Below, piece after piece: positions 19,267 through 64,000 of a stretch of DNA of 64,000 nt. The notes under the pieces are model-generated. The model searched no databases. It was not told the DNA's origin and saw only the letters and a list, made by a program, of their open reading frames with translations. Positions within the stretch are counted from its first letter, which is position 1. Each line of letters opens with the position of its first letter. Source of the DNA: Escherichia coli (GTDB lineage: Bacteria; Pseudomonadota; Gammaproteobacteria; Enterobacterales; Enterobacteriaceae). A program made the translations under genes and the position numbers. The stretch lies in the NCBI RefSeq assembly GCF_051903065.1, contig NZ_CP178438.1; one strand, written 5' to 3'.

Positions 19267-19290
19267 CACTTCCTCCCTGATCAACGAGGA

Positions 19291-20778: not shown

Positions 20779-21534
<756 letters not shown>

Positions 21535-21538
21535 TTAA

Positions 21539-22105: not shown

Positions 22106-22320
22106 AATCACTCTTCGTCTTTCAGTAAAAGCGATAATTTACCCTGTTGCCCTGCGCCAACCAACCGCTGATTTCACGCCGCTTCTGATGCAATAGTGAA
22201 AACGGCAATACGCCACGCGCACGTTGCTGACGAAAACAGCCATTTGCAGTATACTCCCGCCCTAATTTCTTTAACTGGTGCGGGCAATTTTTGCTCGCTT
22301 CATCAATGTAAGGTATTCCG

Positions 22321-24054
22321 GTGAATATTCAGGCTCTTCTCTCAGAAAAAGTCCGTCAGGCCATGATTGCGGCAGGCGCGCCTGCGGATTGCGAACCGCA
22401 GGTTCGTCAGTCAGCAAAAGTTCAGTTCGGCGACTATCAGGCTAACGGCATGATGGCAGTTGCTAAAAAACTGGGTATGGCACCGCGACAATTAGCAGAG
22501 CAGGTGCTGACTCATCTGGATCTTAACGGTATCGCCAGCAAAGTTGAGATCGCCGGTCCAGGCTTTATCAACATTTTCCTTGATCCGGCATTCCTGGCTG
22601 AACATGTTCAGCAGGCGCTGGCGTCCGATCGTCTCGGTGTTGCTACGCCAGAAAAACAGACCATTGTGGTTGACTACTCTGCGCCAAACGTGGCGAAAGA
22701 GATGCACGTCGGTCACCTGCGCTCTACCATTATTGGTGACGCAGCAGTGCGTACTCTGGAGTTCCTCGGTCACAAAGTGATTCGCGCAAACCACGTCGGC
22801 GACTGGGGCACTCAGTTCGGTATGCTGATTGCATGGCTGGAAAAGCAGCAGCAGGAAAACGCCGGTGAAATGGAGCTGGCTGACCTTGAAGGTTTCTACC
22901 GCGATGCGAAAAAGCATTACGACGAAGATGAAGAGTTTGCCGAGCGTGCACGTAACTACGTGGTAAAACTGCAAAGCGGTGACGAATATTTCCGCGAGAT
23001 GTGGCGCAAACTGGTCGACATAACCATGACGCAGAACCAGATCACTTACGATCGTCTCAACGTGACGCTGACCCGTGATGACGTGATGGGCGAAAGCCTC
23101 TACAACCCAATGCTGCCAGGAATTGTGGCGGATCTCAAAGCCAAAGGTCTGGCAGTAGAAAGCGAAGGGGCGACCGTCGTATTCCTTGATGAGTTTAAAA
23201 ACAAGGAAGGCGAACCGATGGGCGTGATCATTCAGAAGAAAGATGGCGGCTATCTCTACACCACCACTGATATCGCCTGTGCGAAATATCGTTATGAAAC
23301 ACTGCATGCCGATCGCGTGCTGTATTACATCGACTCCCGTCAGCATCAACACCTGATGCAGGCATGGGCGATCGTCCGTAAAGCAGGCTATGTACCGGAA
23401 TCCGTACCGCTGGAACACCACATGTTCGGCATGATGCTGGGTAAAGACGGCAAACCGTTCAAAACCCGCGCGGGTGGTACAGTGAAACTGGCCGATCTGC
23501 TGGATGAAGCCCTGGAACGTGCACGCCGTCTGGTGGCAGAAAAGAACCCGGATATGCCAGCCGACGAGCTGGAAAAACTGGCTAACGCGGTTGGTATTGG
23601 TGCGGTGAAATATGCGGATCTCTCCAAAAACCGCACCACGGACTACATCTTCGACTGGGACAACATGCTGGCGTTTGAGGGTAATACCGCGCCATACATG
23701 CAGTATGCATACACGCGTGTATTGTCCGTGTTCCGTAAAGCAGAAATTAACGAAGAGCAACTGGCTGCAGCTCCGGTTATCATCCGTGAAGATCGTGAAG
23801 CGCAACTGGCAGCTCGCCTGCTGCAGTTTGAAGAAACCCTCACCGTGGTTGCCCGTGAAGGCACGCCGCATGTAATGTGTGCTTACCTGTACGATCTGGC
23901 CGGTCTGTTCTCTGGCTTCTACGAGCACTGCCCGATCCTCAGCGCAGAAAACGAAGAAGTGCGTAACAGCCGTCTGAAACTGGCACAACTGACGGCGAAG
24001 ACGCTGAAGCTGGGTCTGGATACGCTGGGTATTGAGACTGTAGAGCGTATGTAA
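22321..24054 (+). CDS. argS: arginine--tRNA ligase
   Basis: 577-aa ORF with GTG start; HVGH motif; matches ArgRS. Confidence 0.97.
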
Positions 24055-24073
24055 TCGATTTTTCGTGAGAGTG

Positions 24074-24110
24074 AAGCCTGATCAGGGTTAGCCGATCAGG
24101 CTTTTTTATT
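24074..24110 (+). terminator. rho-independent terminator downstream of argS
   Basis: gcctgatc...gatcaggc hairpin followed by TTTTTTATT. Confidence 0.8.
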
Positions 24111-24230
24111 GCCATCTAAATGTATTCTGAAAACGGACATGCCATCGTTTTCTCACTGTTGAGTAAGAGGCCAGAAGCGTAATATCCAGGCCCAGGAAAA
24201 CGATAACGGTTCAATTTAAGGAATACCGCA

Positions 24231-24719
24231 GTGTTTAAATTTCTTGTATTAACATTAGGCATTATCTCTTGCCAGGCTTACGCAGAAGATACGGTTATAG
24301 TAAATGATCATGACATTTCAGCCATCAAAGATTGTTGGCAAAAAAATTCAGATGATGATACTGACATTAACGTGATCAAATCATGTCTGCGACAAGAATA
24401 CAACCTCGTCGATGCGCAATTAAATAAAGCTTATGGTGAAGCTTATCGTTATATAGAACAAGTGCCACGCACAGGTGCAAAAAAACCTGATACCGAACAA
24501 CTTAACTTGCTTAAAAAATCACAACGAGCCTGGCTGGATTTTAGGGACAAAGAATGTGAATTAATCCTTTCAAATGAGGATGTTCAGGATTTAAGTGACC
24601 CTTATTCTGAATCAGAATGGCTATCATGTATGATCATACAGACCAATACGCGAACTCGCCAGTTGCAGCTATACCGTAACTCTGAAGATTTTTATCCAAG
24701 CCCTTTGACAAGAGGATAA
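24231..24719 (+). CDS. yecT: YecT (secreted protein of unknown function)
   Basis: 162-aa AT-rich ORF, GTG start, N-terminal signal peptide. Confidence 0.85.
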   Translation: MFKFLVLTLGIISCQAYAEDTVIVNDHDISAIKDCWQKNSDDDTDINVIKSCLRQEYNLVDAQLNKAYGEAYRYIEQVPRTGAKKPDTEQLNLLKKSQRAWLDFRDKECELILSNEDVQDLSDPYSESEWLSCMIIQTNTRTRQLQLYRNSEDFYPSPLTRG

Positions 24720-24840
24720 TTCACATCTTTTTGGCATGTTTTGTTGCAAGCTATTCCTGATAAATAATTGCAACAAAACATCGAGCCTTTTTCGCTGAGT
24801 TATTAAACATGCTCGCGAGCGCGTAATTTTTATTTGTCCT

Positions 24841-25233
24841 TCAGCGATAATTCACAATCACTTCATTCCGTTGTACCTTTAGCGGTGGAATTAACCGCCC
24901 ACCGCCAGGCACTTCCCAGATAAAGCGCAACGGTTCTGCTGCCGCTATACCGGAAAAGGCCACGGTGGTTCCGCTCTGCCCCTCTAATTCGACACAACGA
25001 GATTGCGAACACAAGCGAACCCGCAGTCCTGCAGGTGTCGGGCCGATAAGCTGATACCGCCACGCCACCAGCGTCATCAATCCTGAAGCAGGTTGTCGAG
25101 TAGAAAGAGGCGCTGACGACATCGACTCACCGCGATGATTTAGCGTAATTCCGACACTACTTGCCTGCCACATCCCCTCCCCGGCGGCTTGCACCAGCAG
25201 CGGAAACAATAATATTGCTAATAAGGTTCTCAT
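24841..25233 (-). CDS. flhE: flagellar protein FlhE
   Basis: 130 aa from MRTLLAILLFPLLVQA (signal peptide); start overlaps flhA stop. Confidence 0.9.
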   Translation of the reverse strand: MRTLLAILLFPLLVQAAGEGMWQASSVGITLNHRGESMSSAPLSTRQPASGLMTLVAWRYQLIGPTPAGLRVRLCSQSRCVELEGQSGTTVAFSGIAAAEPLRFIWEVPGGGRLIPPLKVQRNEVIVNYR

Positions 25234-27311
25234 CATTTACCGCCAATTGTCGCCGTCATGCGGATATGTCGGTTATCAGATAGTTCCAGATTCGACAGCA
25301 CCACTAACTGCGGCAAGCTGCGGCGCAGAAAGCGAGACAATAATGGTCGCAGCGCGTGGTTCACCAACAATACTGGCGGCGCACCCAACATCTCCTGACG
25401 GGATAGCGCTTCCTGAGTTTGCGCCAGTAAACGATCCGCCAGCCCTGGCTCCAGTCCGCCCCCGCCCTGCAACGCCTGTAGCAACAAACGTTCCAGCGGT
25501 GTATCGAGGCCAATAACATGGACTTCATCTTTGCCAGGAAACCACTGCTGGGTAATCGCCCGTCCCAACGCCACGCGCACGACGGCGGTTAATTCATGTG
25601 GATCGCTTTGGATGGGCGCATGTTCCGCCAGCGTTTCGAGAATAGTGCGCATATCGCGAATCGGCACTTTTTCATCGAGCAGATTTTGCAGCACTTTATG
25701 CAGTGTGGTGAGCGTGACGACGCCAGGAACGAGATCTTCCGTCAGCTTTGGCATCTCCTGGGCGACGCGATCCAGCAGCTGTTGCGCCTCCTGACGACCA
25801 AACAGCTCTGCGGCATGCTGGCTAATGAGGTGGTTAAGATGCGTTGCTACCACCGTGCTAGCCTCAACCACGGTGTACCCCTGAATCTGCGCCTGTTCTT
25901 TTAGCGCACTTTCAATCCAGATAGCATTCAGGCCAAATGCCGGATCGATGGTCGCCTCACCAGGTAACGTCCCGGCAGCGGTTCCAGGGTTAATCGCCAG
26001 CCAGCGCCCCGGATAAGCATCACCACTGCCTATCTCCACGCCTTTCATCAAAATGCGATAGCGGGCAGGTTGCAGATCCATATTGTCGCGAATGTGCACC
26101 ACCGGCGGCAAGAAGCCCATTTCCTGAGCAAATTTCTTACGAATACTACGAATACGGCCCAGCAACTCGCCATCTTGTTGGAAATCAACCATCGGGATCA
26201 ATCGATAACCCACTTCCATTCCCAGAGAATCTTCCAGTTGTACATCGTTCCACGTCGCTTCGACAACGGTATTATTCTCTGCCATTTTTACCGGTTTGGG
26301 TTCGGCAGGCGCTTTTTGTTCGCGTCCGCGTATCCACCAGGCCAGCCCGAGCAATCCGGCAGTGAACAGCAAAAATACCAGGTTCGGCATTCCAGGCACC
26401 AGGCCGAGTAAACCGAGCACGGCGGCGCTTAACAACATAACGCTTGGGTTACTGAAAAGCTGATTCACCATCTGCTCGCCAACATCCTGATCGGTGCTGA
26501 CACGCGTAACGATGACCCCCGCGGCGGTAGAAATCACCAGCGCCGGGATTTGTGCCACCAGACCGTCACCAATGGTCAAGAGCGTATAACTTTCCGCCGC
26601 GTGTCCCATGCTCATGCCATGTTGCAGCACGCCGACCAGCAACCCGCCGACAACGTTAATGACCATGATGAGGATCCCGGCGATGGCATCGCCGCGAACA
26701 AACTTACTTGCCCCGTCCATTGAGCCGTAAAAATCGGCTTCCTGAGTCACTTCGGAGCGACGTTTTTTCGCCTCATCTTCACCAATCAATCCGGCGTTAA
26801 GGTCGGCGTCAATCGCCATCTGCTTACCCGGCATACCATCGAGAACAAAGCGCGCACCCACTTCTGCGATACGTCCGGCACCTTTGGTAATGACCATAAA
26901 GTTGATGATCACGAGAATGACGAACACCACGATACCGATAGCGAAATTGCCACCAACGAGGAAGTGACCGAACGCTTCGACCACCTTCCCAGCCGCCGCT
27001 GCGCCGGTATGCCCTTCCATCAAAATGATACGGGTTGAAGCCACGTTAAGTGCCAGACGCAACAGCGTGGTAAACAACAGAATGGTCGGAAACGCAGCAA
27101 ACTCAAGCGTGCGCTGGGTAAACATCGCCACCAGCAACACCATGATCGACAAGGCAATATTGAAGGTAAACAACAGGTCGAGTATGAATGCGGGCAGTGG
27201 CAGCACCATCATCGACAAGATCAACAGGATCAAAATCGGTCCGGCAAGGATCTGCCATTGTGTCGATTTCAGGTTTGCGGGCAGGCGCAGCATCGCGGCC
27301 AGATTACTCAT
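25233..27311 (-). CDS. flhA: flagellar export apparatus protein FlhA
   Basis: 692 aa from MSNLAAMLRLPANL; ORF track has 25-codon upstream extension. Confidence 0.93.
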   Translation of the reverse strand: MSNLAAMLRLPANLKSTQWQILAGPILILLILSMMVLPLPAFILDLLFTFNIALSIMVLLVAMFTQRTLEFAAFPTILLFTTLLRLALNVASTRIILMEGHTGAAAAGKVVEAFGHFLVGGNFAIGIVVFVILVIINFMVITKGAGRIAEVGARFVLDGMPGKQMAIDADLNAGLIGEDEAKKRRSEVTQEADFYGSMDGASKFVRGDAIAGILIMVINVVGGLLVGVLQHGMSMGHAAESYTLLTIGDGLVAQIPALVISTAAGVIVTRVSTDQDVGEQMVNQLFSNPSVMLLSAAVLGLLGLVPGMPNLVFLLFTAGLLGLAWWIRGREQKAPAEPKPVKMAENNTVVEATWNDVQLEDSLGMEVGYRLIPMVDFQQDGELLGRIRSIRKKFAQEMGFLPPVVHIRDNMDLQPARYRILMKGVEIGSGDAYPGRWLAINPGTAAGTLPGEATIDPAFGLNAIWIESALKEQAQIQGYTVVEASTVVATHLNHLISQHAAELFGRQEAQQLLDRVAQEMPKLTEDLVPGVVTLTTLHKVLQNLLDEKVPIRDMRTILETLAEHAPIQSDPHELTAVVRVALGRAITQQWFPGKDEVHVIGLDTPLERLLLQALQGGGGLEPGLADRLLAQTQEALSRQEMLGAPPVLLVNHALRPLLSRFLRRSLPQLVVLSNLELSDNRHIRMTATIGGK

Positions 27312-28559: not shown

Positions 28560-28650
28560 CACATCAAGCATAGTGTGCGTTTGTCGGATGCGGCGTCATC
28601 GCCTTATCAGACCGCCTGATATGACGTGGTCACGCCACATCAGGCAATAC
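28560..28650. repeat. REP element between flhB and cheZ
   Basis: tgtcggatgcggcgtcatcgccttatcagaccgcctgatatgacg... palindromic units. Confidence 0.7.
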
Positions 28651-31643: not shown

Positions 31644-33245
31644 TCAGGATACCACTGGCGCAATTTGTAACTGCGCCGACTCATGTCGTGCTACTTCATG
31701 TTCTTCAAGGGTAAATACCGCCACACGCGACGAAAGATGGTCGGCCTGATTCGCCAGTTGTTCCGTTGCCACCGCCGCTTCTTCTACCAGCGAGGCGTTC
31801 TGCTGAGTCACCTGATCCATCTGGCTGACAGCCTGTGCAACCTGCTCAATCCCCCGCCGTTGTTCTTCCGACGCCGAAGCAATTTCTCCCATAATGTCGT
31901 TCACGCGGGTCACCGAACTGACAATATCGGTCATGGTCGCGGCGGCGTTATTCACCAGTTTCGAACCCTGCTGGACACGATTGACTGACTCTTCGATCAG
32001 CCCTTTGATCTCTTTTGCTGCCTGCGCGCTACGGCTGGCAAGATTGCGCACTTCACCTGCCACTACCGCAAAACCACGCCCCTGCTCTCCGGCGCGAGCC
32101 GCTTCCACTGCCGCATTCAGGGCCAGAATATTGGTCTGGAAAGCAATTCCGTCGATAACGCTGATAATGTCGCCAATTTTTTGCGAGCTGGTGGCGATCC
32201 CCTGCATGGTGTGAGTCATGGTACTGACCTGAACACCGCCCGCCTGCGCCGTTGTCGCGGCATTTTTTGCCAGTTCCGACGCCTGTCGTGCGTTATCGGC
32301 GTTTTGCCCTACCGTGGCGGTTAATTGCTCCATACTGGCGGCCGTTTGTGCCAGCGATGCCGCCTGCTGTTCGGTACGACTTGAGAGATCGTTATTGCCT
32401 GCGACAATCTCCGCGATCCCAATGTGCATCTCCTGGCTTCCCTTACGCACATCACTCACCGTCCCACGCAAAGCCTGCTGCATGGTCTTCAGGCTGGCAA
32501 AAATGGCGGTGATCTCATTACGACCATATACCGCAATCGGACGCGCCAGATTACCCGCAGCAATGCTGTCAAAATGGCTACCGATAATGGCCAGTGGTTG
32601 AACAATCATCTTGCGCGTCCACCACAGCGCACTGCTGATGTAGATCGCCGCAACAATAATCATGCTGATAAACACCAGCGCCGAAATCTGATAGTTACGC
32701 TGGCTTTGCGCACTGGCGGCTTCCAGCACATGGTTGATCTCCAGCTGCCAGGCCTCAAAGTTAACGTCAAACGCATTCTGTGATCCCTGCACCGGCGCAG
32801 TGAGGAAATCCGAAAGTTGATTACTTTCAAGCCAGGTCGCCTGATGTTCGAGATCGTTGTGCCAGCGGGCAAAACTTTTCTCCGTCTCTTTTTGCAATGC
32901 CCTGACGTGCTCGTTGCCCGCAGTCATCGCCATAAAACTTTTAAACAGCGTGGTGGATTGCGTCAGACTGGCGCGCGCCGTCGTCATCAACGTTTTAATG
33001 TCATCCGCCGGATAGCTAAGCGCTGTCAGAGTGCCTGCTTTGTTCAGCGCGGTACTGGCCTGTAACATTACCGCCCGAGTTTGCGCTAATGCCGCACGTT
33101 GCTGATTGCTCTGCTCGACCTGATTCAGTCGTTGCAAATCGTCGCGAAATGCCCAAAAAGACATGCCGTTACTGCCAATCTGCAAGATCCCGCAGAGAAT
33201 CAAAATTAAAAACAGCGTGGTCGAAATTCGAATACGATTAAACAT
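31644..33245 (-). CDS. tap: methyl-accepting chemotaxis protein IV (dipeptide/pyrimidine)
   Basis: 533 aa from MFNRIRISTTLF; conserved MCP signalling domain. Confidence 0.94.
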   Translation of the reverse strand: MFNRIRISTTLFLILILCGILQIGSNGMSFWAFRDDLQRLNQVEQSNQQRAALAQTRAVMLQASTALNKAGTLTALSYPADDIKTLMTTARASLTQSTTLFKSFMAMTAGNEHVRALQKETEKSFARWHNDLEHQATWLESNQLSDFLTAPVQGSQNAFDVNFEAWQLEINHVLEAASAQSQRNYQISALVFISMIIVAAIYISSALWWTRKMIVQPLAIIGSHFDSIAAGNLARPIAVYGRNEITAIFASLKTMQQALRGTVSDVRKGSQEMHIGIAEIVAGNNDLSSRTEQQAASLAQTAASMEQLTATVGQNADNARQASELAKNAATTAQAGGVQVSTMTHTMQGIATSSQKIGDIISVIDGIAFQTNILALNAAVEAARAGEQGRGFAVVAGEVRNLASRSAQAAKEIKGLIEESVNRVQQGSKLVNNAAATMTDIVSSVTRVNDIMGEIASASEEQRRGIEQVAQAVSQMDQVTQQNASLVEEAAVATEQLANQADHLSSRVAVFTLEEHEVARHESAQLQIAPVVS

Positions 33246-33290: not shown

Positions 33291-34952
33291 TCAAAATGTT
33301 TCCCAGTTTGGATCTTGTTCAGCAATTCGCAGTCGTGGCTGTGCCGGTGGTTGCTCACTAGCAGGACGGGATGGTGTTTGCGGTTTATTGGTGAGTGGGC
33401 TGGCTGCCAGACGAAACGCGGAAACCGCTTGCGTTAAACGACTTGCCTGTTCTTCCAGCGCAGCTGCGGCGGCAGCTGATTCCTGCACCAGCGATGCGTT
33501 CTGTTGCGTGACGCGATCCATTTCCGAAACCGCCAATGCGACTTGATCGATGCCACGGCTCTGTTCATCCGATGCCGATGCAATCTCGCCCATAATGTCA
33601 GTCACGCGAGTGACAGCATTGACGATATTGTTCATTGTTTCCCCGGCGCTTTCGACCAGCACCGAACCGGTATCAACGCGCGAGACGGAGTCTTCAATGA
33701 GAGCTTTGATCTCTTTTGCCGCCTGGGCGCTACGACTGGCAAGATTACGCACTTCGCCCGCCACCACGGCAAAACCACGGCCCTGTTCACCCGCTCGCGC
33801 GGCTTCAACCGCGGCATTCAGCGCGAGGATATTAGTCTGGAAGGCAATACCGTCGATAACGCTGATAATGTCGGCAATTTTCTTCGAACTATCGGCGATC
33901 TCATGCATCGTTTTCACTACGCCATCCACCACTTTGCCGCCGTGCTGGGCGGTGTCGGAGGCACTTTGCGCCAGTTGCGAGGCCTGGCGGGCGTTATCGG
34001 CATTTTGCTTCACTGTCGCGGTGAGCTGCTCCATGCTGGCGGCAGTTTCTTCCAGCGCGGATGCCTGCTGTTCAGTACGGGAGGAAAGATCGGTGTTGCC
34101 CGCCGCAATTTCACGGGTACCGGCATAGATGGCATCTGAACCTTCGCGGACATGAGTGACGGTGTCAGTCAAAGAGCGTTGCATATGTGAAACGCTCTGC
34201 GCCAGGTCGCCCATTTCACTGCGCCCGTCAATGGTCAGGGTATTCGCCAGGTTACCACCGGCGATTTCGCGAATGTGAGCAATAATTTTTGCCAGCGGTG
34301 TAAGCAACATACGGCGAATGCCGTACCACGCCACCAGCAGAATCAATACTACCACCAGCGCGATAACCGCCAGTTGCCACTGGGCAAATCGGTAATCATC
34401 TGCGTTGTCAGTGACGATATCGCGATACAGTTTTTCACTGCTGAGGGCGTACTGAGCAAACGCTTCGCCCATTGCATTTTGCATTCCCTGGGTTGGCTGA
34501 GCGAAATAAGCTCCAGTATTGCCATAATCAAGATAATCAATCAGCTCAGTTAACGCTGTGTAATAGTTTTTATATTTTTCATCAATATTACGACTGGTAG
34601 CGACCATTTCAGGTAACGGTGCCATGCTTTTGAATTTTTTATAATGAGTCGCGGCCTGGGCCAATGTTTTCCTGGCGCTATCGAGCAATTCAACTTTGGC
34701 ATTACTTTGTTGATTGGAGGAATCCATCATCATCCGCACCGCTGAACGACTCAGGTTAATGCGCGTTTGCAGCATTAAATCCCAGGTTGACGTCAGCTCG
34801 CCCTGCTGTTCCCGTAATTGATTGGAAACCACAAAGCTCTTCTGGCTATGGTGAAGGGAAGAAAAAAACAGACTGCCGGAAATAAGCTGTAACAGTGCGA
34901 ATACCCCCAGCACCATTACCAACAGCGTGACTACGCGGATACGGTTAATCAT
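33291..34952 (-). CDS. tar: methyl-accepting chemotaxis protein II (aspartate/maltose), NWETF C-terminus
   Basis: 553 aa from [11 protein letters not shown]; C-terminal NWETF pentapeptide. Confidence 0.95.
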
Positions 34953-53099: not shown

Positions 53100-53227
53100 A
53101 CGCTTTTCCTTGTGGATCTCAACTCGCCAGCACCTATCTTACATGCCGGTCCGTATCAGAGATACTTTTTGAGTGGCTTTGCCGGTGATTAAAAATCAAG
53201 GAGGGTGTAACGACAAGTTGCAGGCAC

Positions 53228-53250
53228 AAAAAAACCACCCGAAGGTGGTT
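53228..53250 (-). terminator. rho-independent terminator (tRNA-operon terminator homologue), repeat copy 1
   Basis: minus strand ccacc-ttcg-ggtgg hairpin + T7. Confidence 0.75.
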
Positions 53251-53294
53251 TCACGACACTGCTTATTGCTTTGATTTTATTCTTATCTTTCCCA

Positions 53295-53350
53295 TGGTAC
53301 CCGGAGCGGGACTTGAACCCGCACAGCGCGAACGCCGAGGGATTTTAAAT
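53295..53350 (-). other. 3' fragment (56 nt) of tRNA-Leu(UAA), att-site remnant
   Basis: revcomp ATTTAAAATCCCTCGGCGTTCGCGCTGTGCGGGTTCAAGTCCCGCTCCGGGTACCA = 3' part of leuZ from anticodon loop to CCA; 5' half absent. Confidence 0.85.
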
Positions 53351-53529
53351 TCTACGCAGGATCAATGAGTTACATAGCAGTGCATTGCGAAACTTTGCTG
53401 TAATTGTTTACTCATTTTACTGTAATTGGCAGTAAATAGATAGACTTGGATAACTTTGAGCACAGAATCTGCACAGGTAAGTCCCCTCTCACGGAGGCCT
53501 ACCTGTGCTATATCTATATGACTGCAAAG

Positions 53530-54171
53530 TTACGAGTTTGACTGGAAATCTTCAATTATCTTCTGATTGTAATCATCCAGATACTTTTGCAGTTCATCCC
53601 TGTCGATCAGACGTACCAAGGCTGATTCAGCTAACTCTTTCGCAGAGCGAGTGAGTAGGAATTAGTCACAACCATCGCCTCATCACAACCATAGAATGTT
53701 TTAGCAGAGATCACCTGCTGCACCGCCGAGTTACCTACAGAACCAGAATAATTTTTCGCCTGAATAACCATATCCTTACCAAATCGAGTGACGAAGAGAT
53801 CTGCCCCCTGATCTTGCGTTCTCTTGGTTTCTTTGACGTCATAGCCCATAGTCTGGAATACTTCCACAAGGAAATCTTCAAACTGGAAACCGTCCATTGC
53901 ATCAACTAAATACATGGTGACGAATTTGTTAGGGTTAAAATGTTCGAGCCGTGTAGCTAATCTATCAACCAGAATATCAAAATAAATATGTTCGCACACA
54001 GCTAAGTATTTTTTAACTTCATCAAATGAAACTAAAGGAACACCAGGCGTAGCCTCCACTTTTTCATTGAACTCTACTGATGAGAACTCTATTTTATTGC
54101 TCCATATATAGAATAGAAACAATGAAAGATCTGCCCTAAAAGTGGTACCCGCTTCCTCAATCCATGACTTC
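53530..54171 (-). pseudogene. Mrr-like (PD-(D/E)xK) restriction endonuclease pseudogene: 5' truncated by IS1, frameshift near 3' end
   Basis: ORF 53631..54185 has Mrr_cat-like ...GADLFVTRFGKDMVIQAKNYSGSVGNSAVQQV...; its apparent TTG start lies inside the IS1 end; -1 frame past the stop reads AKELAESALVRLIDRDELQKYLDDYNQKIIEDFQSNS. Confidence 0.7.
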
Positions 54172-54226
54172 GGTGATGCTGCCAACTTACTGATTTAGTG
54201 TATGATGGTGTTTTTGAGGTGCTCCA

Positions 54227-54502
54227 GTGGCTTCTGTTTCTATCAGCTGTCCCTCCTGTTCAGCTACTGACGGGGTGGTGCGTAACGGCAAAAGCACCGC
54301 CGGACATCAGCGCTATCTCTGCTCTCACTGCCGTAAAACATGGCAACTGCAGTTCACTTACACCGCTTCTCAACCCGGTACGCACCAGAAAATCATTGAT
54401 ATGGCCATGAATGGCGTTGGATGCCGGGCAACAGCCCGCATTATGGGCGTTGGCCTCAACACGATTTTACGTCACTTAAAAAACTCAGGCCGCAGTCGGT
54501 AA
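54227..54502 (+). CDS. insA: IS1 InsA
   Basis: 91-aa [25 protein letters not shown]... Confidence 0.95.
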
Positions 54503-54924
54503 CCTCGCGCATACAGCCGGGCAGTGACGTCATCGTCTGCGCGGAAATGGACGAACAGTGGGGCTATGTCGGGGCTAAATCGCGCCAGCGCTGGCTGTTT
54601 TACGCGTATGACAGGCTCCGGAAGACGGTTGTTGCGCACGTATTCGGTGAACGCACTATGGCGACGCTGGGGCGTCTTATGAGCCTGCTGTCACCCTTTG
54701 ACGTGGTGATATGGATGACGGATGGCTGGCCGCTGTATGAATCCCGCCTGAAGGGAAAGCTGCACGTAATCAGCAAGCGATATACGCAGCGAATTGAGCG
54801 GCATAACCTGAATCTGAGGCAGCACCTGGCACGGCTGGGACGGAAGTCGCTGTCGTTCTCAAAATCGGTGGAGCTGCATGACAAAGTCATCGGGCATTAT
54901 CTGAACATAAAACACTATCAATAA
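54421..54924 (+). CDS. insB: IS1 InsB (expressed as InsAB' by -1 frameshift at A6C, 54476..54484)
   Basis: 167-aa [19 protein letters not shown]...; slippery TTAAAAAAC present. Confidence 0.93.
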
Positions 54925-55001
54925 GTTGGAGTCATTACCGCCGCTTCACGCAATATCATTTCAGGCTGGCCCGGGAGCTTAATATTCCTCCCCAGGCAAT
55001 C

Positions 55002-55364
55002 GTGTATGCCAATCTACTGGCGTGGGATTACGACGGACTGACCCCTCTCAATCGCCCTCAAAATGAAGTGCAGGAAGTTATATTAGCCTCGCTGAAGCTG
55101 CTGGCGGTACAAATTAAACACCTTGAGCCTGATTTCATCATCTTTGCATCTGGAGCCCGGAGAACAGACTACATCATAAAACAGGTGCTTACTGAGCTGG
55201 GCGGCTATGAGACTTCTGCAGTCATTCCGGGGAAGCTATGGGAGTTCAAAACAGGTAATGCAATCTGTTTCAGAATTGCCCATCCAAGGGCTATGCGCGG
55301 ACACAAGAAGTACAGAGATGAGGTGATTGCACGAATTAAGCAACTTTGTACTCAGGGTGGCTAG
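55002..55364 (+). CDS. hypothetical protein, possibly 5'-truncated gene remnant
   Basis: 120-aa ORF from GTG; frame stays open back to the IS1 junction (54942), so likely a C-terminal fragment. Confidence 0.4.
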   Translation: MYANLLAWDYDGLTPLNRPQNEVQEVILASLKLLAVQIKHLEPDFIIFASGARRTDYIIKQVLTELGGYETSAVIPGKLWEFKTGNAICFRIAHPRAMRGHKKYRDEVIARIKQLCTQGG

Positions 55365-55541
55365 AGCATTACAGTTTGCTCAGCAGGCCCCCCCTTCCCG
55401 GAAGAGTACCGGAAAACAGGCAAAGCGGCCTGGTTCTCTATGCTGGAGGCGACACGTTCAATTCGGCATTGCCAGGCTGTAGATTGCAGCTCATTGCACC
55501 CCGTGAGCACAGGATATGCACAGGGCGTGAATTGCATGCAC

Positions 55542-55567
55542 AAAAAAACCACCCGGAGGTGGTTTCA
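55542..55567 (-). terminator. rho-independent terminator, repeat copy 2
   Basis: A7 + ccaccc-gga-ggtgg hairpin, homologous to 53228..53250. Confidence 0.7.
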
Positions 55568-55606
55568 CGACACTGCTTATTGCTTTGATTATTCTGATGT
55601 TTCCCA

Positions 55607-55662
55607 TGGTACCCGGAGTGGGACTTGAACCCACACAGCGCGAACGCCGAGGGATTTTAAAT
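55607..55662 (-). other. second 3' fragment of tRNA-Leu(UAA), diverged
   Basis: same 56-nt fragment with two substitutions (gagTggg / cccAcac) that stay base-paired in the T-stem. Confidence 0.85.
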
Positions 55663-55938
55663 TCTACGTAGGATCAATGAGTTACATAGCAGTGCATTGC
55701 GAAACTTTGCTGACGTTGAATGGTCGTCTTTGCAACCACTGGCAGAAAATGGATAGCCGTAGATTGCGTTGAGCACAGAAACAGCACAGGGTAATCGTCT
55801 ACCTGGTCCTGTAAAGGAGGTTGTTGCCACACAAGCTAAAGCGCTTGACCTGCCCCCAGTATTCGGTACAACTGTCAGTTAGTAATGGACTGACCCCACC
55901 CCGGTAGACGATCCTGCCCTATAGTTACCTTTAACTAA

Positions 55939-58900
55939 TTATGCCAATTCAGACTCAAACGCTGCATCATTCGCTTCAGCCTCTGCGCCATCAATTAATG
56001 CCAAGACTCGGTCAAGAAAGCGTTGCGCTTCGTATACATCTGTTGCTTGCCGCAGATAATGAGGTATTCGTTCAACAAACTCGGAACGTGATAAAGGCTG
56101 ATGTTCCAGCAAAGCCTCAAGCATTGCGGGCCGCAACAAACGACGATCAGCATCAACATTAGGAAGCTCAACCTCAATGACATGTGTGGCAAAATACTTA
56201 AGTTGCTCCTTAAGCCCCAAATTGGGCATAAGAGAATCAATTGAGTCAGACGCCACTTCAGCGCTTGACTCAATCGTTTCTACATATTCATAGGAAGGTA
56301 CAACAACGTCTGGAGCCAATGTTTTAAGCTCATGGAGTTTACGGATAATCGGAGATAGAACCTCATCAGGATTACTGAACCAATCAGTGGACCAAATGCG
56401 GCTAATTCTCCAACCCAAACGCTCCAGAACCTCTTGACGCAAACGGTCACGATCACGAGCAGATTTAGCTGAGTGATAAGCCGCACCATCACACTCTATG
56501 CCCATTAAGTAACGGCCAGGACAACCTGGATCTTTCACAGCTAGATCAATAAAGAATCCTGCAACCCCTACCTGAGGTTCACACTCAAACCCAGCGTGAT
56601 TGAGTGCTTCCATTACAGCAACCTCAAAGTCACTATCTGGAGCCCTGCCGGTATGCGTTGTGAGGGAATCTAGTTTGCCACTTTCGGCAAACTGTAAAAA
56701 ACCTTTCAACGAAATAACACCAAGTTTACTGATTTCACTCGTCAATACATCTTCAGAACGCATTGAACTAAACACATGCATCCGTTTTTTTGATCGAGTG
56801 AAAAGCACATTCAAGCGACGCCAGCCAACATCGGAATTGATAGGTCCAAAGCGTTGATAAACCTTTCCACCATGCTCAGAAGGTCCATAGGTAAAGGAAA
56901 TAAAGATTACATCACGCTCATCCCCTTGAACGTTCTCAAGGTTTTTCACAAAAAGTGGCTCTTCCATGGCATATAAGCCATCGATTGCATCGTTAAATTC
57001 AGGGCGATTTCGGCGCAATTCATCGATAGCGCGCTCAATTTGATCGCGTTGCTTGGAACTCATGGCCACTACCCCGAGTGACTCACCCGGCCGGTGTTGC
57101 GCATGATGAAGTACGGCCTCAGCAACTGCTTGGGCTTCTTCAATATTGTGTTGATTGGAGAACCGACCTTTTGACACATAGGTAAATTTAATCCCATACT
57201 CTGGAGACTCAGCATTTGGGGAAGGGAATATCACCAAATCACTGTTATAAAAATGGCGGTTAGAGTATGCAATCAACTTTTCATGTCGTGAACGATAGTG
57301 CCAACGCAAACGTCTCATAGGAAACAGTGGCAAAGCAGCATCCAAAATGCTGTCAGTATCACTTAAAGCCGCGGCATCATCGTCATCTTCTCCGTCGGCA
57401 CTTCGATCAAAGAAACTGGTTGGTGGTAGCTGTTTCGGGTCACCAACGACCACTAGTTGCTTGCCCCTCGCGATGACACCCAATGCATCCTCTGGCTTCA
57501 CCTGAGACGCTTCGTCCATCACCACCAGATCAAATTCCATTCGTCCAGGTTCTAGGTAATGAGCTGCTGACATTGGCCCCATCATGAAACAAGGTTTAAT
57601 TGCAACCAGCGCATTACATGCACGGTTAACCAATTGCCTAATTGGAATATGTCTGGTTTTTTTACCCAACTCATTTTTGATCAAAGCTAGTTCTGTATAT
57701 TCACTTTTCTTACCACCAGAATTCCCTTCTGGTATATTTCGGCAAGCAATTTTTGCTGCAATCCGCTGACGTTGTAATTCAATCAGTTTTTTATCGTAAT
57801 CTTTAAATGACTTCTGCAAAGCATTGCGCTGTGAGCCGGAAACTCTCATCAATTCAGGGTGGATGTGAATAACCTCCCGCGCCAGCTGGTCATGAATTGC
57901 TAATGCTAAACCCAATTCAACTTTTTCAATCGGGAGCGAGCCCGCAAGTACAGCACTCCAGATTCGCTGCAATCCATTTTCATGCATCTGCTCGTAACAA
58001 CGAATAAAGTTAACCCACCCGTTCAACCAACGGGGTTGCTGTATTGCTCTTTCGTTGCGCTCGATTAATGTATTAAGAGAACCATCAGTCGACTTGAGCC
58101 ACTGACTCCGCTCTAACTTTGTTTCTAGCGCATATAACTCAGCATTTTTAATCTGTTCATTCCATTTCGAAACTATTTCCCCACCATCACGACATAGTAA
58201 ATCGTAATCACTACCACTAGCCAAATGTCTGATCTGGGTAGCCAAGGATACGCAATTTATCTTATCAACCAGTTGCTCGGCAAAATTCAGCGTGTCGTTA
58301 ATAGTGTCTAACGTCAGTTGATTATTTTTATACGCACCGCAAGCCAATGGGGTTAATTGTAAAAACGCCCCTAACTGTAACGAGTCATTTTCAAGGGATA
58401 TCTGAAGATCGTTTATGTTTTGCAAAATCTCGGAGGAATGAGTCATCTGCTCTAATGATATATCTGGATTGATAAACCATCCCTGCAAGGCAATGAGAGT
58501 ATTCCGCACCTGTCGGTAAGATTGCATCAATACACCTTGCTCACCTAACCAAGATGCATGTTCTTCCAACAAGCTAGAAATACGCGGTAATAACTTAGCC
58601 TCGTGCTCGACCCGTTTAACCAAAGTCATTAATCTTGAGCTAATCTGCGATTTCTCGATTAAATGCACACCTTTGATAATCTCACCATCTAGGTTAAATA
58701 ATCCAGAGCCTATCGCAACTCGCTTTCCAAAACCTATCCCGTAACAAGCTCGGACCTTCTTGTACCAATCACGCAATAACATGAGTTGTTCACAGTCGGT
58801 GTCCAACCCTCGGAATGCATTACCAAGTTGATTACCAAAGTCACTTTGTTCAAACCGTTGTAACAGCTCCGAATACTTGAGCAAATCAGCTGAGCAGCGT

Positions 58901-61686
58901 TTTAACTCAGCAAACTTAGTGTCAGGCTTACGAGATTGCGCCATGAGCAGTGCCTTGGCACTACGCCAATCACTCTTAAACCATGCAAATAATCCCCCTT
59001 GCTGGATAACAGCAACGGCATGCGCGAGCATCTCTTGGGAAGGCAACTGGTCCAATTGATACAAAGTAGATAGACCATCTCTTAAAGGACGCAATGTTTC
59101 GATTTGACACATTAAGTCGCGCAATACTGCATCGATATCATCATCATCAAAAAGAGGATCTCGAACTCTAATAAGCTCAGTCGGTAAAGCACCCAGAATC
59201 GACAACAACTCAGAGCAGAATAGCAATCCAGCTTGCGAATCATCGATATACGAAGCAATACCATCTGGCAAAGCATTTTTGAAATCGTTTAATTGCGCAT
59301 AAATAGATGATAACTCATCATGAATTGATTGGATGGATTCAAGCCACCTGACCAAATCACGTAAAGTGAAATCCTCTGCTGCACCATATTTTTCCAGCTC
59401 TTCACGAGGAAAGTCACACGATTGTCCTTGTTCTAAAAGTCGTAGCTTTTGAGGCTCGATAACCTGGCTCAAGGCCACATAATGACCTTGTAGCAACTCG
59501 AACCTATCTAAATAGTGACGCACCCGTGCAATGGCATCGGGTGAATCTAGCTCACTAAGTGCTGGGAAATGCTCTGAACCACACAACACTGGAAGATTCG
59601 ACTGATCTTCTACCAATTGCTCAATATATTGAAGCGTATTAAGGCTTTCGCCTTCTAACGCCCACTTATCTACATATTCTTGATAGCTATGTTGAAAGTC
59701 GATAATTGATGTCTGCCAAGTTTGTAGCAAATCGACTATACGAGCGCTGTCAAACAATTGAATTTGTGTGTTATTCACACCGCTCCAAGGGTGCTCATAT
59801 ATTTCTGCATTAGCCCCCACCTGCTCACGAACCTCTTTGTAGATGCGGCTAAACTCTACTATTTGGTCACGCAGCCGTAATTGGGTCACTTTATCCAACT
59901 GCTTCCCGGAAAGGTTTTCGATATGAAGTGCTGTTGCATCAATATCTAATTTGTGACGATAACGGGTTGCACCACTCAAAATCTGATGGATCGTTTTGCC
60001 TGTTTGCGCCCATTGGTTATTGATCAATGCGGCATATTCATTGAGCTGCTGCTTAAGATCTTCATAACGCAAAATCTGAGCATCAATCTCTTCCATAGTA
60101 GGCATGGTCGCCTGACTCACCAAGCGAGCATTAATATCATCCAGCACCTTGCGCTTATGAGTTTTATGACTGTGCAACTCTAAGCAAAATTGACCTAGCC
60201 CCGCACGATCCAAGCGACGTTTGACGACCTCCAGTGCAGCCATCTTCTCTGCCACAAACAGGACTTTCTTACCGTTGAGCAGAGCTGCTGCAATCAAGTT
60301 GGTGATCGTTTGTGATTTGCCACTACCAGGAGGGCCCTCAATGACTAAGTTTTGACCACGGATAGCATCGATCAACGCACTGTGCTGCGAGCTATCCGCA
60401 TCATCGATTAGTGGAACCTTGTCATGAATATCAGGGTAACTATCGATGCAGTACTCATGCTGACCGAAGCCACCAGGTAAGCCGGAATTCTCTTGACCAC
60501 AGCTCTGACTGGTGAAAAAGCGACGAATTACTTCATGAGACAATATATTGCGCTTGTCACAAGGCCAGCGGGCAGGATCGAGGTCAAGATACATCATCAT
60601 CTTGCCAAAATTGAGCAAGCTAAGTGCACCATAACGTTTCACAGACCATTTAGGTTTGTGCTGCTCTACAACCTTCTTCACCGAAGCAAAATAAGACTCT
60701 GGAGTTTCCTCTTCATTGAACAAAGGAAGAGCGAGGCCAAAGTCAGCCTGAAGTTTTTCCTTCAAAGAGAGATTGGGCAAAATATCTTCACCCGTGTAAT
60801 AAAGTTGAAACTTGTAAAGACCATCCTTCGGATCTAATTTTCCTCGTTCACATCTCACCGGAATTGTAAATAACGGTGCATAACGTGCCTTTTCAGAGGA
60901 ATCGCTTTCATACCACTCAAGGAACCCTAACGCCAAATACAAGATGTTGGCGCCACTCTCCTCCAAAGCAGTTTGAGCCTTACCATAGATGGCGCGCAAA
61001 CAAGCTTCCAGTTCATTTGGATAAAGCAGAGCCTGTATCCGATTATCGTCATGAGAGGGATTGGAAGAAGATATACTAATCTCATTCCCAGCCTTTGCCT
61101 GTCGTTCAAAATCCTCAAGCCCTTCATAGCCTGCTAAGCAGCACGCCTCCTTCAACGCTGACAAAGCTATACCTTGATTAACGTATTCAGAACGAATCCC
61201 TGTTAATTTTCCATTCTGGCCTTGGGCATATTGCAAGATAAACTGATGGGCTTTTTCCAGCAACTCTCTATCTGAATCAGAAACAACCGTTTTATGGCTA
61301 TCTGGTAAATCAAAATCTGTACGGATTCCTAAGACGTGCGCCCAATCCTTAGCGCTAGGATGAGCTCTTAACTGTATATCTTTACCATCTGGCCCAACTT
61401 TGAGATAGCCATGCTCTAACAGCTGCGCTCTAGTTGGATCGGGCACAGGAGCAAATTCCATCGGGATTTCCGAGCAAAGGGTTTCATAAAGCTGTTCTGG
61501 TAATTCATCAACAATACGTAGTGAAGACCCTTTTTGAGTGATAGGGAAATTCAAAAGTCGATTTCGAGACGTAAGGTCCAATAACTTCTTACGCATAGCC
61601 TCGAGGGAAGTCAGAATAAAATCTGAGCCTCCTTGATTGAGTTCCTCTGCTGTAGAGGTATCTACAGTCGACATAATGTTCTCCAT
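55939..61686 (-). CDS. giant helicase-nuclease (1915 aa): DUF4011-like N-terminus, Upf1-like SF1 helicase with ~940-aa insertion, C-terminal Vsr/DUF559-like nuclease domain
   Basis: LLDLTSRNRLLNF and LALGFLEWYE near N-terminus; Walker A GPPGSGKS (res 451-458, nt 60313..60336); DEAS (res 1391-1394, nt 57505..57516); VVVGDPKQLPP; GDERDVIFIS; GWRRLNVLFTRSKKRMHVF; C-terminal FFIDLA...IECDGAAYHSAKSARDRDRLRQEVLERLGWRISRIW (nt about 56377..56628). Confidence 0.85.
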   Translation of the reverse strand: MENIMSTVDTSTAEELNQGGSDFILTSLEAMRKKLLDLTSRNRLLNFPITQKGSSLRIVDELPEQLYETLCSEIPMEFAPVPDPTRAQLLEHGYLKVGPDGKDIQLRAHPSAKDWAHVLGIRTDFDLPDSHKTVVSDSDRELLEKAHQFILQYAQGQNGKLTGIRSEYVNQGIALSALKEACCLAGYEGLEDFERQAKAGNEISISSSNPSHDDNRIQALLYPNELEACLRAIYGKAQTALEESGANILYLALGFLEWYESDSSEKARYAPLFTIPVRCERGKLDPKDGLYKFQLYYTGEDILPNLSLKEKLQADFGLALPLFNEEETPESYFASVKKVVEQHKPKWSVKRYGALSLLNFGKMMMYLDLDPARWPCDKRNILSHEVIRRFFTSQSCGQENSGLPGGFGQHEYCIDSYPDIHDKVPLIDDADSSQHSALIDAIRGQNLVIEGPPGSGKSQTITNLIAAALLNGKKVLFVAEKMAALEVVKRRLDRAGLGQFCLELHSHKTHKRKVLDDINARLVSQATMPTMEEIDAQILRYEDLKQQLNEYAALINNQWAQTGKTIHQILSGATRYRHKLDIDATALHIENLSGKQLDKVTQLRLRDQIVEFSRIYKEVREQVGANAEIYEHPWSGVNNTQIQLFDSARIVDLLQTWQTSIIDFQHSYQEYVDKWALEGESLNTLQYIEQLVEDQSNLPVLCGSEHFPALSELDSPDAIARVRHYLDRFELLQGHYVALSQVIEPQKLRLLEQGQSCDFPREELEKYGAAEDFTLRDLVRWLESIQSIHDELSSIYAQLNDFKNALPDGIASYIDDSQAGLLFCSELLSILGALPTELIRVRDPLFDDDDIDAVLRDLMCQIETLRPLRDGLSTLYQLDQLPSQEMLAHAVAVIQQGGLFAWFKSDWRSAKALLMAQSRKPDTKFAELKRCSADLLKYSELLQRFEQSDFGNQLGNAFRGLDTDCEQLMLLRDWYKKVRACYGIGFGKRVAIGSGLFNLDGEIIKGVHLIEKSQISSRLMTLVKRVEHEAKLLPRISSLLEEHASWLGEQGVLMQSYRQVRNTLIALQGWFINPDISLEQMTHSSEILQNINDLQISLENDSLQLGAFLQLTPLACGAYKNNQLTLDTINDTLNFAEQLVDKINCVSLATQIRHLASGSDYDLLCRDGGEIVSKWNEQIKNAELYALETKLERSQWLKSTDGSLNTLIERNERAIQQPRWLNGWVNFIRCYEQMHENGLQRIWSAVLAGSLPIEKVELGLALAIHDQLAREVIHIHPELMRVSGSQRNALQKSFKDYDKKLIELQRQRIAAKIACRNIPEGNSGGKKSEYTELALIKNELGKKTRHIPIRQLVNRACNALVAIKPCFMMGPMSAAHYLEPGRMEFDLVVMDEASQVKPEDALGVIARGKQLVVVGDPKQLPPTSFFDRSADGEDDDDAAALSDTDSILDAALPLFPMRRLRWHYRSRHEKLIAYSNRHFYNSDLVIFPSPNAESPEYGIKFTYVSKGRFSNQHNIEEAQAVAEAVLHHAQHRPGESLGVVAMSSKQRDQIERAIDELRRNRPEFNDAIDGLYAMEEPLFVKNLENVQGDERDVIFISFTYGPSEHGGKVYQRFGPINSDVGWRRLNVLFTRSKKRMHVFSSMRSEDVLTSEISKLGVISLKGFLQFAESGKLDSLTTHTGRAPDSDFEVAVMEALNHAGFECEPQVGVAGFFIDLAVKDPGCPGRYLMGIECDGAAYHSAKSARDRDRLRQEVLERLGWRISRIWSTDWFSNPDEVLSPIIRKLHELKTLAPDVVVPSYEYVETIESSAEVASDSIDSLMPNLGLKEQLKYFATHVIEVELPNVDADRRLLRPAMLEALLEHQPLSRSEFVERIPHYLRQATDVYEAQRFLDRVLALIDGAEAEANDAAFESELA

Positions 61687-61860
61687 TTCTTAGGGTCCAC
61701 AAGTAAAACGTTTTATGCTGATGCATCACAAAAAGACCGCAGTAAACTGCTGCAAAGAAGAGGAGATTTTTAGTCTCCCCTTCTTTATCAATCAGATCAT
61801 ACAATCAACTTAACGCCCATTAGTTGATAGCAGCCAAATTTCATAAACAGATTCAATCCG

Positions 61861-63903
61861 TTATTGCTGAATTTGATTGGATAGTAAGACCTGCAACATA
61901 TCTTGTTGATGCACAGCTATCTCATCTTCCAGCCAACGACCTTTATCTTTCATCAGCCGAATCATAGCAAGCAATTTAAGACTATCAGTCTGGTTATTGG
62001 CAAGGCTTGCTTCAAAGTGCTCCTGCTTCTGTTGCGGCTGGAAGTTACTCAAGCGCGAGTTCTTGCTGTGGCTGATAAGGCAAAGGTTGCCAAACGAATG
62101 GAGTGCACTCTGCTCAACCGGTTTATAGCCATCCATCGGATGCTGGGGTGAGAAGTGCTCCACCGAGCTGCGGAAAGTGAACTCAAAGGAGCCAGCAACT
62201 TTGTCGCTATTCCGATCTCGTACCCACAGCAGATAGTCGAGGAAGTTGAAGACAAAGTTGTTCTCGATATGACCGAAGCGAAGTTTGGATGTAATCACCT
62301 TGTGCCAACTCTCATCCACATTGATGGCGGGCAACAGGGCGTTATCAAGGTAGAGCATCTGGTAATAGGAAGCCCCTTCACCAGGCGCCAAAAAGCGCTG
62401 GAAGACAAAGCGGCGAGCCTGACTCTCCAGATAGGACAGATAAGCCCCGGCATCCACCGGTTGATCAGGGTGACAATTGTCGAACAGATATCTCAGTGCA
62501 CCATTCAGCCAATGTTTGTAAACCAGGGTCGGGGTCGACACATGAAACGCCGACAGCAACATCAGGACCCGCCGGTTAACACCAGAGAAACCATTCTCAT
62601 TTTCATCCTTGTCAAAGGTATTGATGTAACTGACGCTCTTTTCCGAATACCAGTGCAGCCGCTTCAGACTCCAACTATCCTTGCCATCGGCAAACTCGCG
62701 CTTGATGATGAACTGATCAAACAGATACTTGCTCTTTAACAGGCCATAGATAAAACGCTGAACTGCCGCTACTGGATCCGGTTGCCTTATCACTCGCAGC
62801 TCAAACTGATCGACCAGTTGTTTATCATCAAGCGGCACCCCCTCCGTATCACCCGGGTCGCGGCTCACGAGTCGCAGCACATGGAGCAAGAAGTTGGAGA
62901 AGTTGATGACGCTGTTAAAGCGCTCGGAGCCTGCGCTCTCCTCCTCCACCGTCTGCTCACCATCAAGCTTGTCATCCTGCAAAATGGCCAACAAGGTGCG
63001 CCCTTGGCTACCGGCAGCTGCACGGCTTTTATCGGCAGCGTCGGCCGTGTTTGGGGATCCTAGCAGATCAAGCAGATGGGCAAAGTCACGGGGCACAAAC
63101 TGACCCCAGTCGCTCTCACCAAACAGACGGTGGCGCTCTTGCGGGGTAAAGCCGTACTGGATATAGCGCTCCATATTGGCGCAGGCATCCCATACCCGGG
63201 TCAGGATATGAATACTTTGGCGACGATGCTCTTCCTCGGGTATCTGGTTCAGCGTCTCCATCAGCCGCGCCTTGATCACTTCATGCTTTTCCAACTGCTC
63301 GCCGCGATTGTTCATCGCCTCGAAGAAGTGATTGAGATCGGTATCCTTGGGTACTTCGATACGAGAGATCTGCACATGCTTGAAGAGGTAGTCGCAAAAG
63401 GTCGTCAGTTTAGCCCCTACCAAACCAAGATCCGCCATTGCCTTGCCAATCAGCTCAAAACCGTTCACCAAACCTTCATTGAAGGTACTCCCCCGCAAAT
63501 CGTAGGGGGCAACACCCTGCCATAAGCGCTCGAAGGTATGGCTCGATATCGGGCGACTCTCAAAAGCGAGGTTGATGGTCTGATACCAGCTCATATCCAC
63601 CGAATCTATCGCGTGATGTTTGAGCCAATTGGCCAGCAGAGAGAGGGTAGTAAAGCGCTGCTGGCCATCGATTACCTCGAAACTGCCATCGTCCCGGGCA
63701 AACACCACCAGGGTGCCGATATAGTAGGTTTGCGGCCCCTTACCACTGACCAATTTTTGCTGATAATCCAGCACATCCTGCAGCAGCTGGGTGATCTCTC
63801 CCTCACCCCAGGCATAGTTGCGCTGGTACATGGGCACCAGATAGCGGGCGCGATCTTCAAGCAGTGCACGAATGGAAAAGGGGCGAACGCCTGCATCATT
63901 CAT
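61861..63903 (-). CDS. DUF262 (ParB-like NTPase/nuclease) + DUF1524 (His-Me finger) protein, GmrSD-like putative type IV restriction enzyme
   Basis: N-terminal [16 protein letters not shown] and [12 protein letters not shown] (res 79-83); C-terminal [12 protein letters not shown]...[18 protein letters not shown]. Confidence 0.85.
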
Positions 63904-64000
63904 AATATTTCATCTCCCGAAACAGCCCGACCAGCTCATCTTCGGCACCATTGCGATTGTTCTTGTTCTCTCGACTGCTCATGCTAGGCAAAGGGAAGCC
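63896..64000 (-). CDS. 3' end of an upstream ORF running off the window (partial)
   Basis: minus-strand frame open from 64000 to TGA at 63898..63896 (...[28 protein letters not shown]); ATGAATGA overlap with the DUF262 start. Confidence 0.4.

Follow-up and report, generated by a model that had tools for sequence, protein, structure and literature searches.

A leuZ fragment with a paired T-stem change in an array of integrative elements of Escherichia coli

Organisation of the array at leuZ

The window, that is, the whole stretch of 64,000 nucleotides analysed here, is 100% identical to Escherichia coli strain 23CRST027, and its neighbourhood was taken from the RefSeq record of that strain. 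In this record, the order is yecA, a first leuZ 3' fragment (copy 1), a stretch of 2.2 kb, a second leuZ 3' fragment (copy 2), an island of ~35 kb, an intact leuZ gene, cysT and glyW. The intact leuZ gene (record position 2382192-2382278) lies ~26.7 kb past the right end of the window. The array therefore has the arrangement of attachment repeats, two tRNA 3' fragments and one complete leuZ at its far end. The 2.2-kb stretch between the two copies is called element X below, and the island is called element Y.

The left end of Y (55663-55790) follows copy 2; it has 50 nt in common with the left end of X and carries a candidate arm-type site for the integrase. The cargo of Y begins with hhe (55939-61686, minus strand), known from the open reading frame list and RefSeq, which encodes a DUF4011 anti-phage protein of 1,915 aa and is read towards copy 2 and its terminator. 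Further cargo with a DUF262 gene occupies 61687-64000, and Y runs on for ~26.7 kb past the window to the integrase and the intact leuZ. In all, the cargo of the island includes hhe, two DUF262 genes, a type I restriction-modification system, a tyrosine recombinase, a family-B DNA polymerase, DUF726, DUF2787 and a second integrase, and a gene of 246 aa adjoins the tRNA. The integrase of Y (399 aa; Phage_integrase, E=8e-24; Arm-DNA-bind_3, E=3e-14) lies outside the window, 1.06 kb from the rebuilt leuZ. The 866-aa protein encoded between the repeats is annotated as DNA polymerase type-B family; its Pfam match to DNA_pol_B_2 (E=0.009) is weaker than the cut-off. By its position at the Leu-tRNA gene of E. 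coli with conserved repeats, Y is placed among the pipolins. As described in the pipolin papers, these elements carry a primer-independent family-B polymerase, two tyrosine recombinases and defence cargo, and their tRNA-adjacent gene is presented as a uracil-DNA glycosylase (PMC7385651; PMC9710591; PMC11551731). Pfam gave no match for the 246-aa tRNA-adjacent gene of Y or for its 120-aa fragment in X.

Element X (53351-55531) consists of a left end, an Mrr-type pseudogene, an IS1, a gene fragment and a right arm. The truncated Mrr-type restriction endonuclease gene (53631-54185, minus strand; Pfam Mrr_cat) is a RefSeq pseudogene flanking the IS1, which is complete (768 bp, 54172-54939) and lies between two RefSeq pseudogenes. 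The second of these (55002-55364, plus strand) is a C-terminal piece of 120 aa of the pipolin tRNA-adjacent gene. The right 590 bp of X share ~97% identity with the right end of the pipolin adjoining the intact leuZ. No polymerase is found among the leftovers of X, which are the restriction-enzyme pseudogene, the IS1 and the 120-aa gene fragment; as judged from this gene content, X is a remnant with a pipolin-type right end and not a pipolin by the published definition. Since X has neither integrase nor polymerase, its pipolin-type identity rests on the 590 bp of its right end and on a parallel in strain NCTC9967. The deletion that reduced X to 2.2 kb was probably caused by IS1.

The 84-nt junction at copy 2 was found exactly in 7 E. 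coli genomes, all of them with three repeats. In NCTC9967, the array consists of yecA, a host repeat, a 14-kb element, a middle repeat with the same T-stem variant as copy 2 (described below) and a pipolin. The 14-kb first element is the undeleted counterpart of X: it has its own tRNA-adjacent gene, and it retains an integrase at the position at which X has lost its own. This element (5372-20084 of the NCTC9967 locus analysed) has an integrase and a tRNA-adjacent gene of pipolin type, carries a fimbrial operon, has no polymerase and stands in tandem with a complete pipolin. A small island at leuZ in strain 675SK2 was considered as the parent of X and rejected, as only the left (restriction enzyme) part is common to both; its right end differs and its 3'ETS is of the host type. 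This match on the left only means either that X is a mosaic or that the left module is common to different elements. The 675SK2 island itself (21100-25660 of the locus analysed) is a 4.5-kb leuZ remnant with a restriction endonuclease, a PD-(D/E)XK nuclease, a GmrSD fragment and an IS1, and it is widespread in other genomes.

A 20-nt motif, GAGCACAGRANNNGCACAGG, occurs in one orientation at 53458-53477, 55505-55524 and 55771-55790, where 0 occurrences are expected by chance. These sites lie on both sides of copy 2 and on the element side of copy 1. Because they are placed on the element arms and the integrase has an arm-binding domain, they are candidate arm-type binding sites of the integrase. 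The window also holds repeats of other kinds: clusters of REP/BIME-type palindromes (GCCGGATGCGGCG...) at 6332-6610, which includes three tandem units of ~98 bp, at 1256-1316, at 16685-16745 and at 28580-28613, and a 300-nt direct repeat with 73% identity (31774-32073 and 33475-33774) in the adjacent chemoreceptor paralogues tap and tar.

Two leuZ fragments and the RNA they carry

The 56-nt sequence of copy 2 has two matches in the window, one at 55607-55662 (0 mismatches) and one at 53295-53350 (2 mismatches); none is expected from shuffled sequences. Both fragments lie on the minus strand and, matched to the K-12 gene, derive from leuZ, which encodes tRNA-Leu(UAA). Copy 1 (53295-53350) is the host-derived leuZ 3' fragment: it runs from the anticodon loop, where the similarity to the tRNA ends, to the CCA, is identical to K-12 leuZ over its whole length and has the canonical C50:G64 pair in the T stem. 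Copy 2 (55607-55662) is the middle attachment repeat, in which the right end of X is joined to the left end of Y; it is an element-derived leuZ 3' fragment with U50:A64 in the T stem.

The initial annotation had stated that the two copies differ at two bases that pair with each other in the T stem. Exactly two differences were indeed found, T in place of C (55619 relative to 53307) and A in place of G (55633 relative to 53321). Sites 55633 and 55619 correspond to positions 61 and 75 of the 87-nt gene, or 50 and 64 in the standard numbering. When the fragments were folded onto the tRNA-Leu cloverleaf, positions 50 and 64 paired, as had been proposed, in the T stem of the minimum-free-energy structure, so that the C:G pair is changed to U:A. 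The cloverleaf is retained with U:A (-35.1 kcal/mol, compared to -36.6 kcal/mol with C:G) and is broken in the form with a single change, C:A. When two random substitutions were simulated in the 56-nt fragment, a compensating pair arose by chance with a probability of ~0.003 to 0.008.

ARAGORN finds 0 tRNA genes in the window, and hence copies 1 and 2 are both fragments and neither is a gene. The possibility that copy 2 is a complete functional tRNA gene was rejected for this reason and because the 5' half is absent. Joined to the host 5' half in other genomes, the same copy-2 sequence is recognised by ARAGORN as tRNA-Leu(UAA). Scanning 53100-56000 against Rfam with a permissive threshold yielded 3 weak chance matches, with no match to a tRNA or to the 3'ETS-leuZ family.

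The duplicated block (53218-53400 and 55532-55712) exceeds the tRNA piece by 77 nt downstream of the tRNA and by 50 nt of element end, and its two copies are 96-97% identical over ~183 bp and 2.3 kb apart. The attachment repeat itself, ~133 bp long, consists of the leuZ 3' half, the complete small RNA 3'ETS-leuZ and the terminator of the operon. In the repeat next to yecA, the left part (53218-53294, minus strand) is the host 3'ETS-leuZ with its intrinsic terminator; it is identical to the K-12 ncRNA 3'ETS-leuZ just downstream of leuZ, and folding revealed the terminator hairpin and the U-run. The element-borne 3'ETS-leuZ with its terminator (55532-55606, minus strand) differs from the host version by a 2-nt deletion, 3 substitutions near the 5' end and the flank, and 1 in the hairpin loop. 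We take 3'ETS-leuZ to be a small-RNA sponge for RyhB and RybB. It is described as being cut from the glyW-cysT-leuZ precursor and as pairing with RyhB (Lalaouna et al. 2015, as cited in PMC6191717). As in this sponge, both repeats in the window carry the full 3'ETS with the RyhB-pairing core (AAGCAAUAAGCAGUGUCGUG) and the terminator unchanged; the hairpin is retained in the element version, its sole change being the one in the loop. In contrast to it, the copies in the window adjoin a truncated tRNA and lack the promoter of a tRNA operon. The host, the element and a dozen other genera have the same pairing core and differ within the first ~20 nt. RNAduplex energies for RyhB with the 3'ETS versions were discarded: the program over-extends the pairing, so that only the conservation of the core is relied on. 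The consensus terminator scan did not flag the 3'ETS hairpin, and the terminator call rests on the K-12 annotation, the literature and our own fold. As both attachment repeats hold the complete 3'ETS-leuZ and the terminator, pipolin integration would replace a regulatory RNA as well as part of a tRNA.

The position of copy 2 suggests an additional role that would come on top of the account given below. As hhe lies on the same strand, ends 276 nt upstream of copy 2 and is separated from it by no terminator-like site in a scan of that strand, copy 2 with its 3'ETS and terminator may end the hhe transcript and provide a further copy of the 3'ETS-leuZ sponge. Its tRNA/3'ETS junction, RyhB-pairing core and terminator hairpin are undamaged, and the left-end gene of X likewise points towards copy 1. 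However, the hairpin is the one left unflagged by the terminator scan, and 3'ETS is normally processed after a complete tRNA precursor has been recognised; copy 2 has no such precursor. We regard this role as possible but rather unlikely.

The U:A allele of leuZ in E. coli and in other genera

E. coli is not known to have any tRNA-Leu(UAA) gene other than leuZ, or any other reader of UUA. At 100% identity, a leuZ gene of full length with U50:A64 was present in 122 of the 5,424 complete genomes of E. coli. The gene carries the annotation tRNA-Leu, and ARAGORN recognises it in both genomes scanned (ATCC 43886 and G5). In strain G5, the U:A gene is the sole place in the genome that matches the 87-nt leuZ query. 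Since leuZ is the sole reader of UUA, a genome with U:A as its sole copy must have a working U:A tRNA; the U:A version is functional. No full-length leuZ with U:G or C:A was found among the complete E. coli genomes searched. At the three loci examined (ATCC 43886, G5 and SCPM-O-B-8794), the U:A leuZ adjoins a pipolin-type integrase end in every case.

These findings bear on the view of the initial annotation that copy 2 came in with the element and is no product of random decay of the host copy. Decay is contradicted by the genomes in which the same 3' half completes an annotated leuZ, with intermediates absent. That copy 2 was brought in with the element agrees with the sequences around it: its T stem, 3'ETS and left flank are those found beside pipolin right ends elsewhere. 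Copy 1 together with its 3'ETS and left flank has exactly the sequence of the empty K-12 site, from which copy 2 differs in the left flank and in the 3'ETS. The supplier of copy 2 is the small remnant to its left (53351-55531) and not the large island to its right. The part of the proposal in which the element brought a tRNA-Leu gene holds for the origin of the sequence in a functional leuZ; what was carried is the 3' half with the 3' spacer and not the whole gene. Copy 2 is an integration footprint and not a decaying gene.

The high identity and the proximity of the two blocks would also be expected if the 3' region of the host leuZ had been duplicated locally and had then drifted, the paired changes being a coincidence. 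This origin is extremely improbable. The exact copy-2 sequence and its flank stand beside pipolin ends in >100 other genomes, where they complete a full-length leuZ; copy 2 is bordered on its left by a pipolin right end and not by host DNA; the chance of a compensating pair is as low as given above; and U:A is the normal allele in other genera.

The latter point emerged from a scan of species-representative genomes with the U:A T arm and acceptor strand as the query, which corresponds to the search of other Enterobacterales that had been called for. At least 29 loci in Enterobacteriaceae carry this T arm and acceptor strand; unrelated tRNAs of Bacteroidota were set aside. Among the matches listed, intact leuZ genes with U:A occur in Citrobacter werkmanii, C. 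youngae, C. braakii, C. koseri and C. portucalensis, and also in Kluyvera, Pseudocitrobacter, Yokenella, Raoultella, Enterobacter and Buttiauxella; the only C. freundii sequence among them was a fragment lying at the end of a contig. In three Pseudocitrobacter species, yecA directly follows the U:A leuZ, and no element is therefore involved there. The displaced fragments of host origin in C. koseri, C. braakii and K. intermedia have U:A as well. The suggestion that copy 2 represents the allele of a different lineage is thus upheld by intact leuZ genes of many other Enterobacteriaceae, element-free loci included.

Some leuZ 3' fragments recovered in Enterobacter sichuanensis, C. freundii and C. 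portucalensis (our loci L091, L108 and L119) are joined to element ends (...AACACGCATGA, ...TTAACAACCAA) unlike those of pipolins. These different ends imply that other integrase families use leuZ with a different exchange point.

The element-type 3'ETS is without the AA insertion that sets E. coli apart from all non-Escherichia genera sampled. From this and from the presence of U:A in other genera, the sequence comparison supports a derivation of the 3' half of copy 2 from a non-Escherichia leuZ. The variable stretch ACAUCAG of the element-type 3'ETS found no match among the native sequences sampled. Within E. coli, the element-type 3'ETS is also combined with the canonical C:G stem in 212 genomes, including the intact leuZ of the present strain, which means that the T-stem allele is not strictly tied to the element. 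These combinations of markers call for an additional process, either sequence exchange among the repeats (homologous recombination or gene conversion) or a change that arose in the element lineage.

Both the unmatched ACAUCAG stretch and the sharing of the element-type 3'ETS by C:G and U:A genes (212 genomes and ~112-122 genomes, respectively) would fit an origin of U:A inside the element lineage, by two successive mutations through a U:G wobble selected for a working tRNA, with no inheritance from the leuZ of another host. Against it, U:A is present in many native leuZ genes of genera that also host related elements (C. koseri and Buttiauxella, for example), the AA insertion specific to E. 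coli is absent from the element-type 3'ETS, just as it is from all natives outside Escherichia, and the U:G intermediate was seen in no full-length leuZ. We consider an origin of this kind very unlikely, and favour inheritance of the U:A half from the leuZ of another host.

Probable successive integrations at leuZ

The distribution of sequence markers around the anticodon loop was analysed in an alignment of eight attachment copies from five genomes. The markers on the 3' side (T stem, 3'ETS and flank) go with the left neighbour, and the other side of the anticodon loop goes with the right neighbour, which is either a tRNA 5' half or the left end of an element. The markers break at the anticodon loop, the pattern expected of strand exchange at this point.

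Combined, these results make it very probable that two related elements of the pipolin family integrated at leuZ in succession and that copy 2 is the hybrid attachment site they left behind. According to this account, such elements would carry a replacement for everything 3' of the anticodon loop, namely the leuZ 3' half, the 3'ETS-leuZ spacer and the terminator of the operon. Their tyrosine integrase, which has an arm-binding domain, would exchange strands in the anticodon loop, joining the host 5' half to the element 3' half, so that the sole UUA-reading tRNA stays intact. The displaced host 3' half would be left as a dead fragment beside yecA, which is copy 1. A second element, Y, would then have taken the same site and displaced the 3' half supplied by the first element, X, as copy 2; we infer this order of the two integrations. 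IS1 would subsequently have removed most of X. The 3' half borne by the element would have to work in an essential tRNA and would hence be under selection for function, which would explain why the compensating pair C50:G64 to U50:A64 makes up its only differences from E. coli. The core of copy 2 is identical to the cores of copy 1 and of the intact gene. In all likelihood, copy 2 is now an inert scar, still usable as a partner in recombination, and its paired change reflects past selection in a working tRNA.

That an integrating element can replace the 3' part of a tRNA is textbook knowledge. A class of integration into tRNA genes, said to go back to Williams in 2002, reportedly uses strand exchange in the anticodon loop, the element supplying the replacement 3' part of the tRNA. 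The present array resembles this class in several respects: the repeat begins in the anticodon loop, a symmetric anticodon stem flanks the 7-nt loop, an integrase with an arm-binding domain lies near the rebuilt tRNA, and the displaced 3' fragment is found at the far end. It differs in that the common block reaches 77 nt past the tRNA, with a regulatory spacer RNA and a terminator. As in tandem arrays at one tRNA site, three direct repeats surround two elements and the middle repeat is a hybrid of a right end and a left end; here, however, the first element has been cut to 2.2 kb, probably by IS1, and is not self-mobile.

For E. coli pipolins, integration at Leu-tRNA, conserved att repeats and some genomes with three repeats have been described (Flament-Simon et al. 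2020, PMC7385651; ExplorePipolin, PMC9710591; Mateo-Caceres et al. 2024, PMC11551731), and the present array agrees with what these papers say on the integration site, the tRNA-overlapping repeat and the make-up of the island. In the three-repeat cases that they report, the extra element is a myovirus prophage (PMC7385651; PMC9710591; PMC11551731), whereas an integrase end of pipolin type marks the extra element of the present array and, more clearly, that of NCTC9967. Passages of the pipolin papers dealing with tRNA, att and leuZ mention neither the T-stem polymorphism, its frequency and the 3'ETS-leuZ inside the repeat, nor a second pipolin-type end in tandem with a pipolin in E. coli. A literature search on leuZ islands gave nothing relevant beyond the pipolin papers. 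The same papers state that the mechanism of integration and excision awaits in vivo confirmation (PMC7385651; PMC9710591; PMC11551731). The 2024 survey, in the part concerned, detected no re-infection by pipolins in Enterobacterales (Mateo-Caceres et al. 2024, PMC11551731); the tandem in NCTC9967 looks like the kind of occupation reported there as undetected. Set against these passages, the element family, the leuZ repeats and the three-repeat arrays are already published, and the T-stem allele, the 3'ETS in the repeat and the tandem pipolin-type end are refinements of a known system. The paired-substitution feature from which the analysis started is real, was correctly interpreted and is ordinary in kind.

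The observations on copy 2, the 3'ETS and hhe can be joined in one broader reading. Pipolin-type elements would carry a functional cassette of tRNA 3' half, 3'ETS-leuZ sponge and terminator and would swap both host RNA alleles at each integration, so that the two T-stem alleles of E. coli would be driven by elements; displaced copies downstream of defence genes such as hhe would be expressed and alter the buffering of RyhB and RybB, and the window would hold the remnant of a pipolin re-infection. Taken as a whole, this reading is a doubtful one. As the attachment repeat carries a known regulatory RNA, integration could change small-RNA buffering.

The known working of these elements is unchanged by the present findings. 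The analysis of the fragments gives the probable order of events at a busy defence-island site, and indicates that integrative elements can swap part of an essential host tRNA for a foreign, working allele; in this way, ~2% of complete E. coli genomes read UUA through a leuZ with an element-derived T stem.
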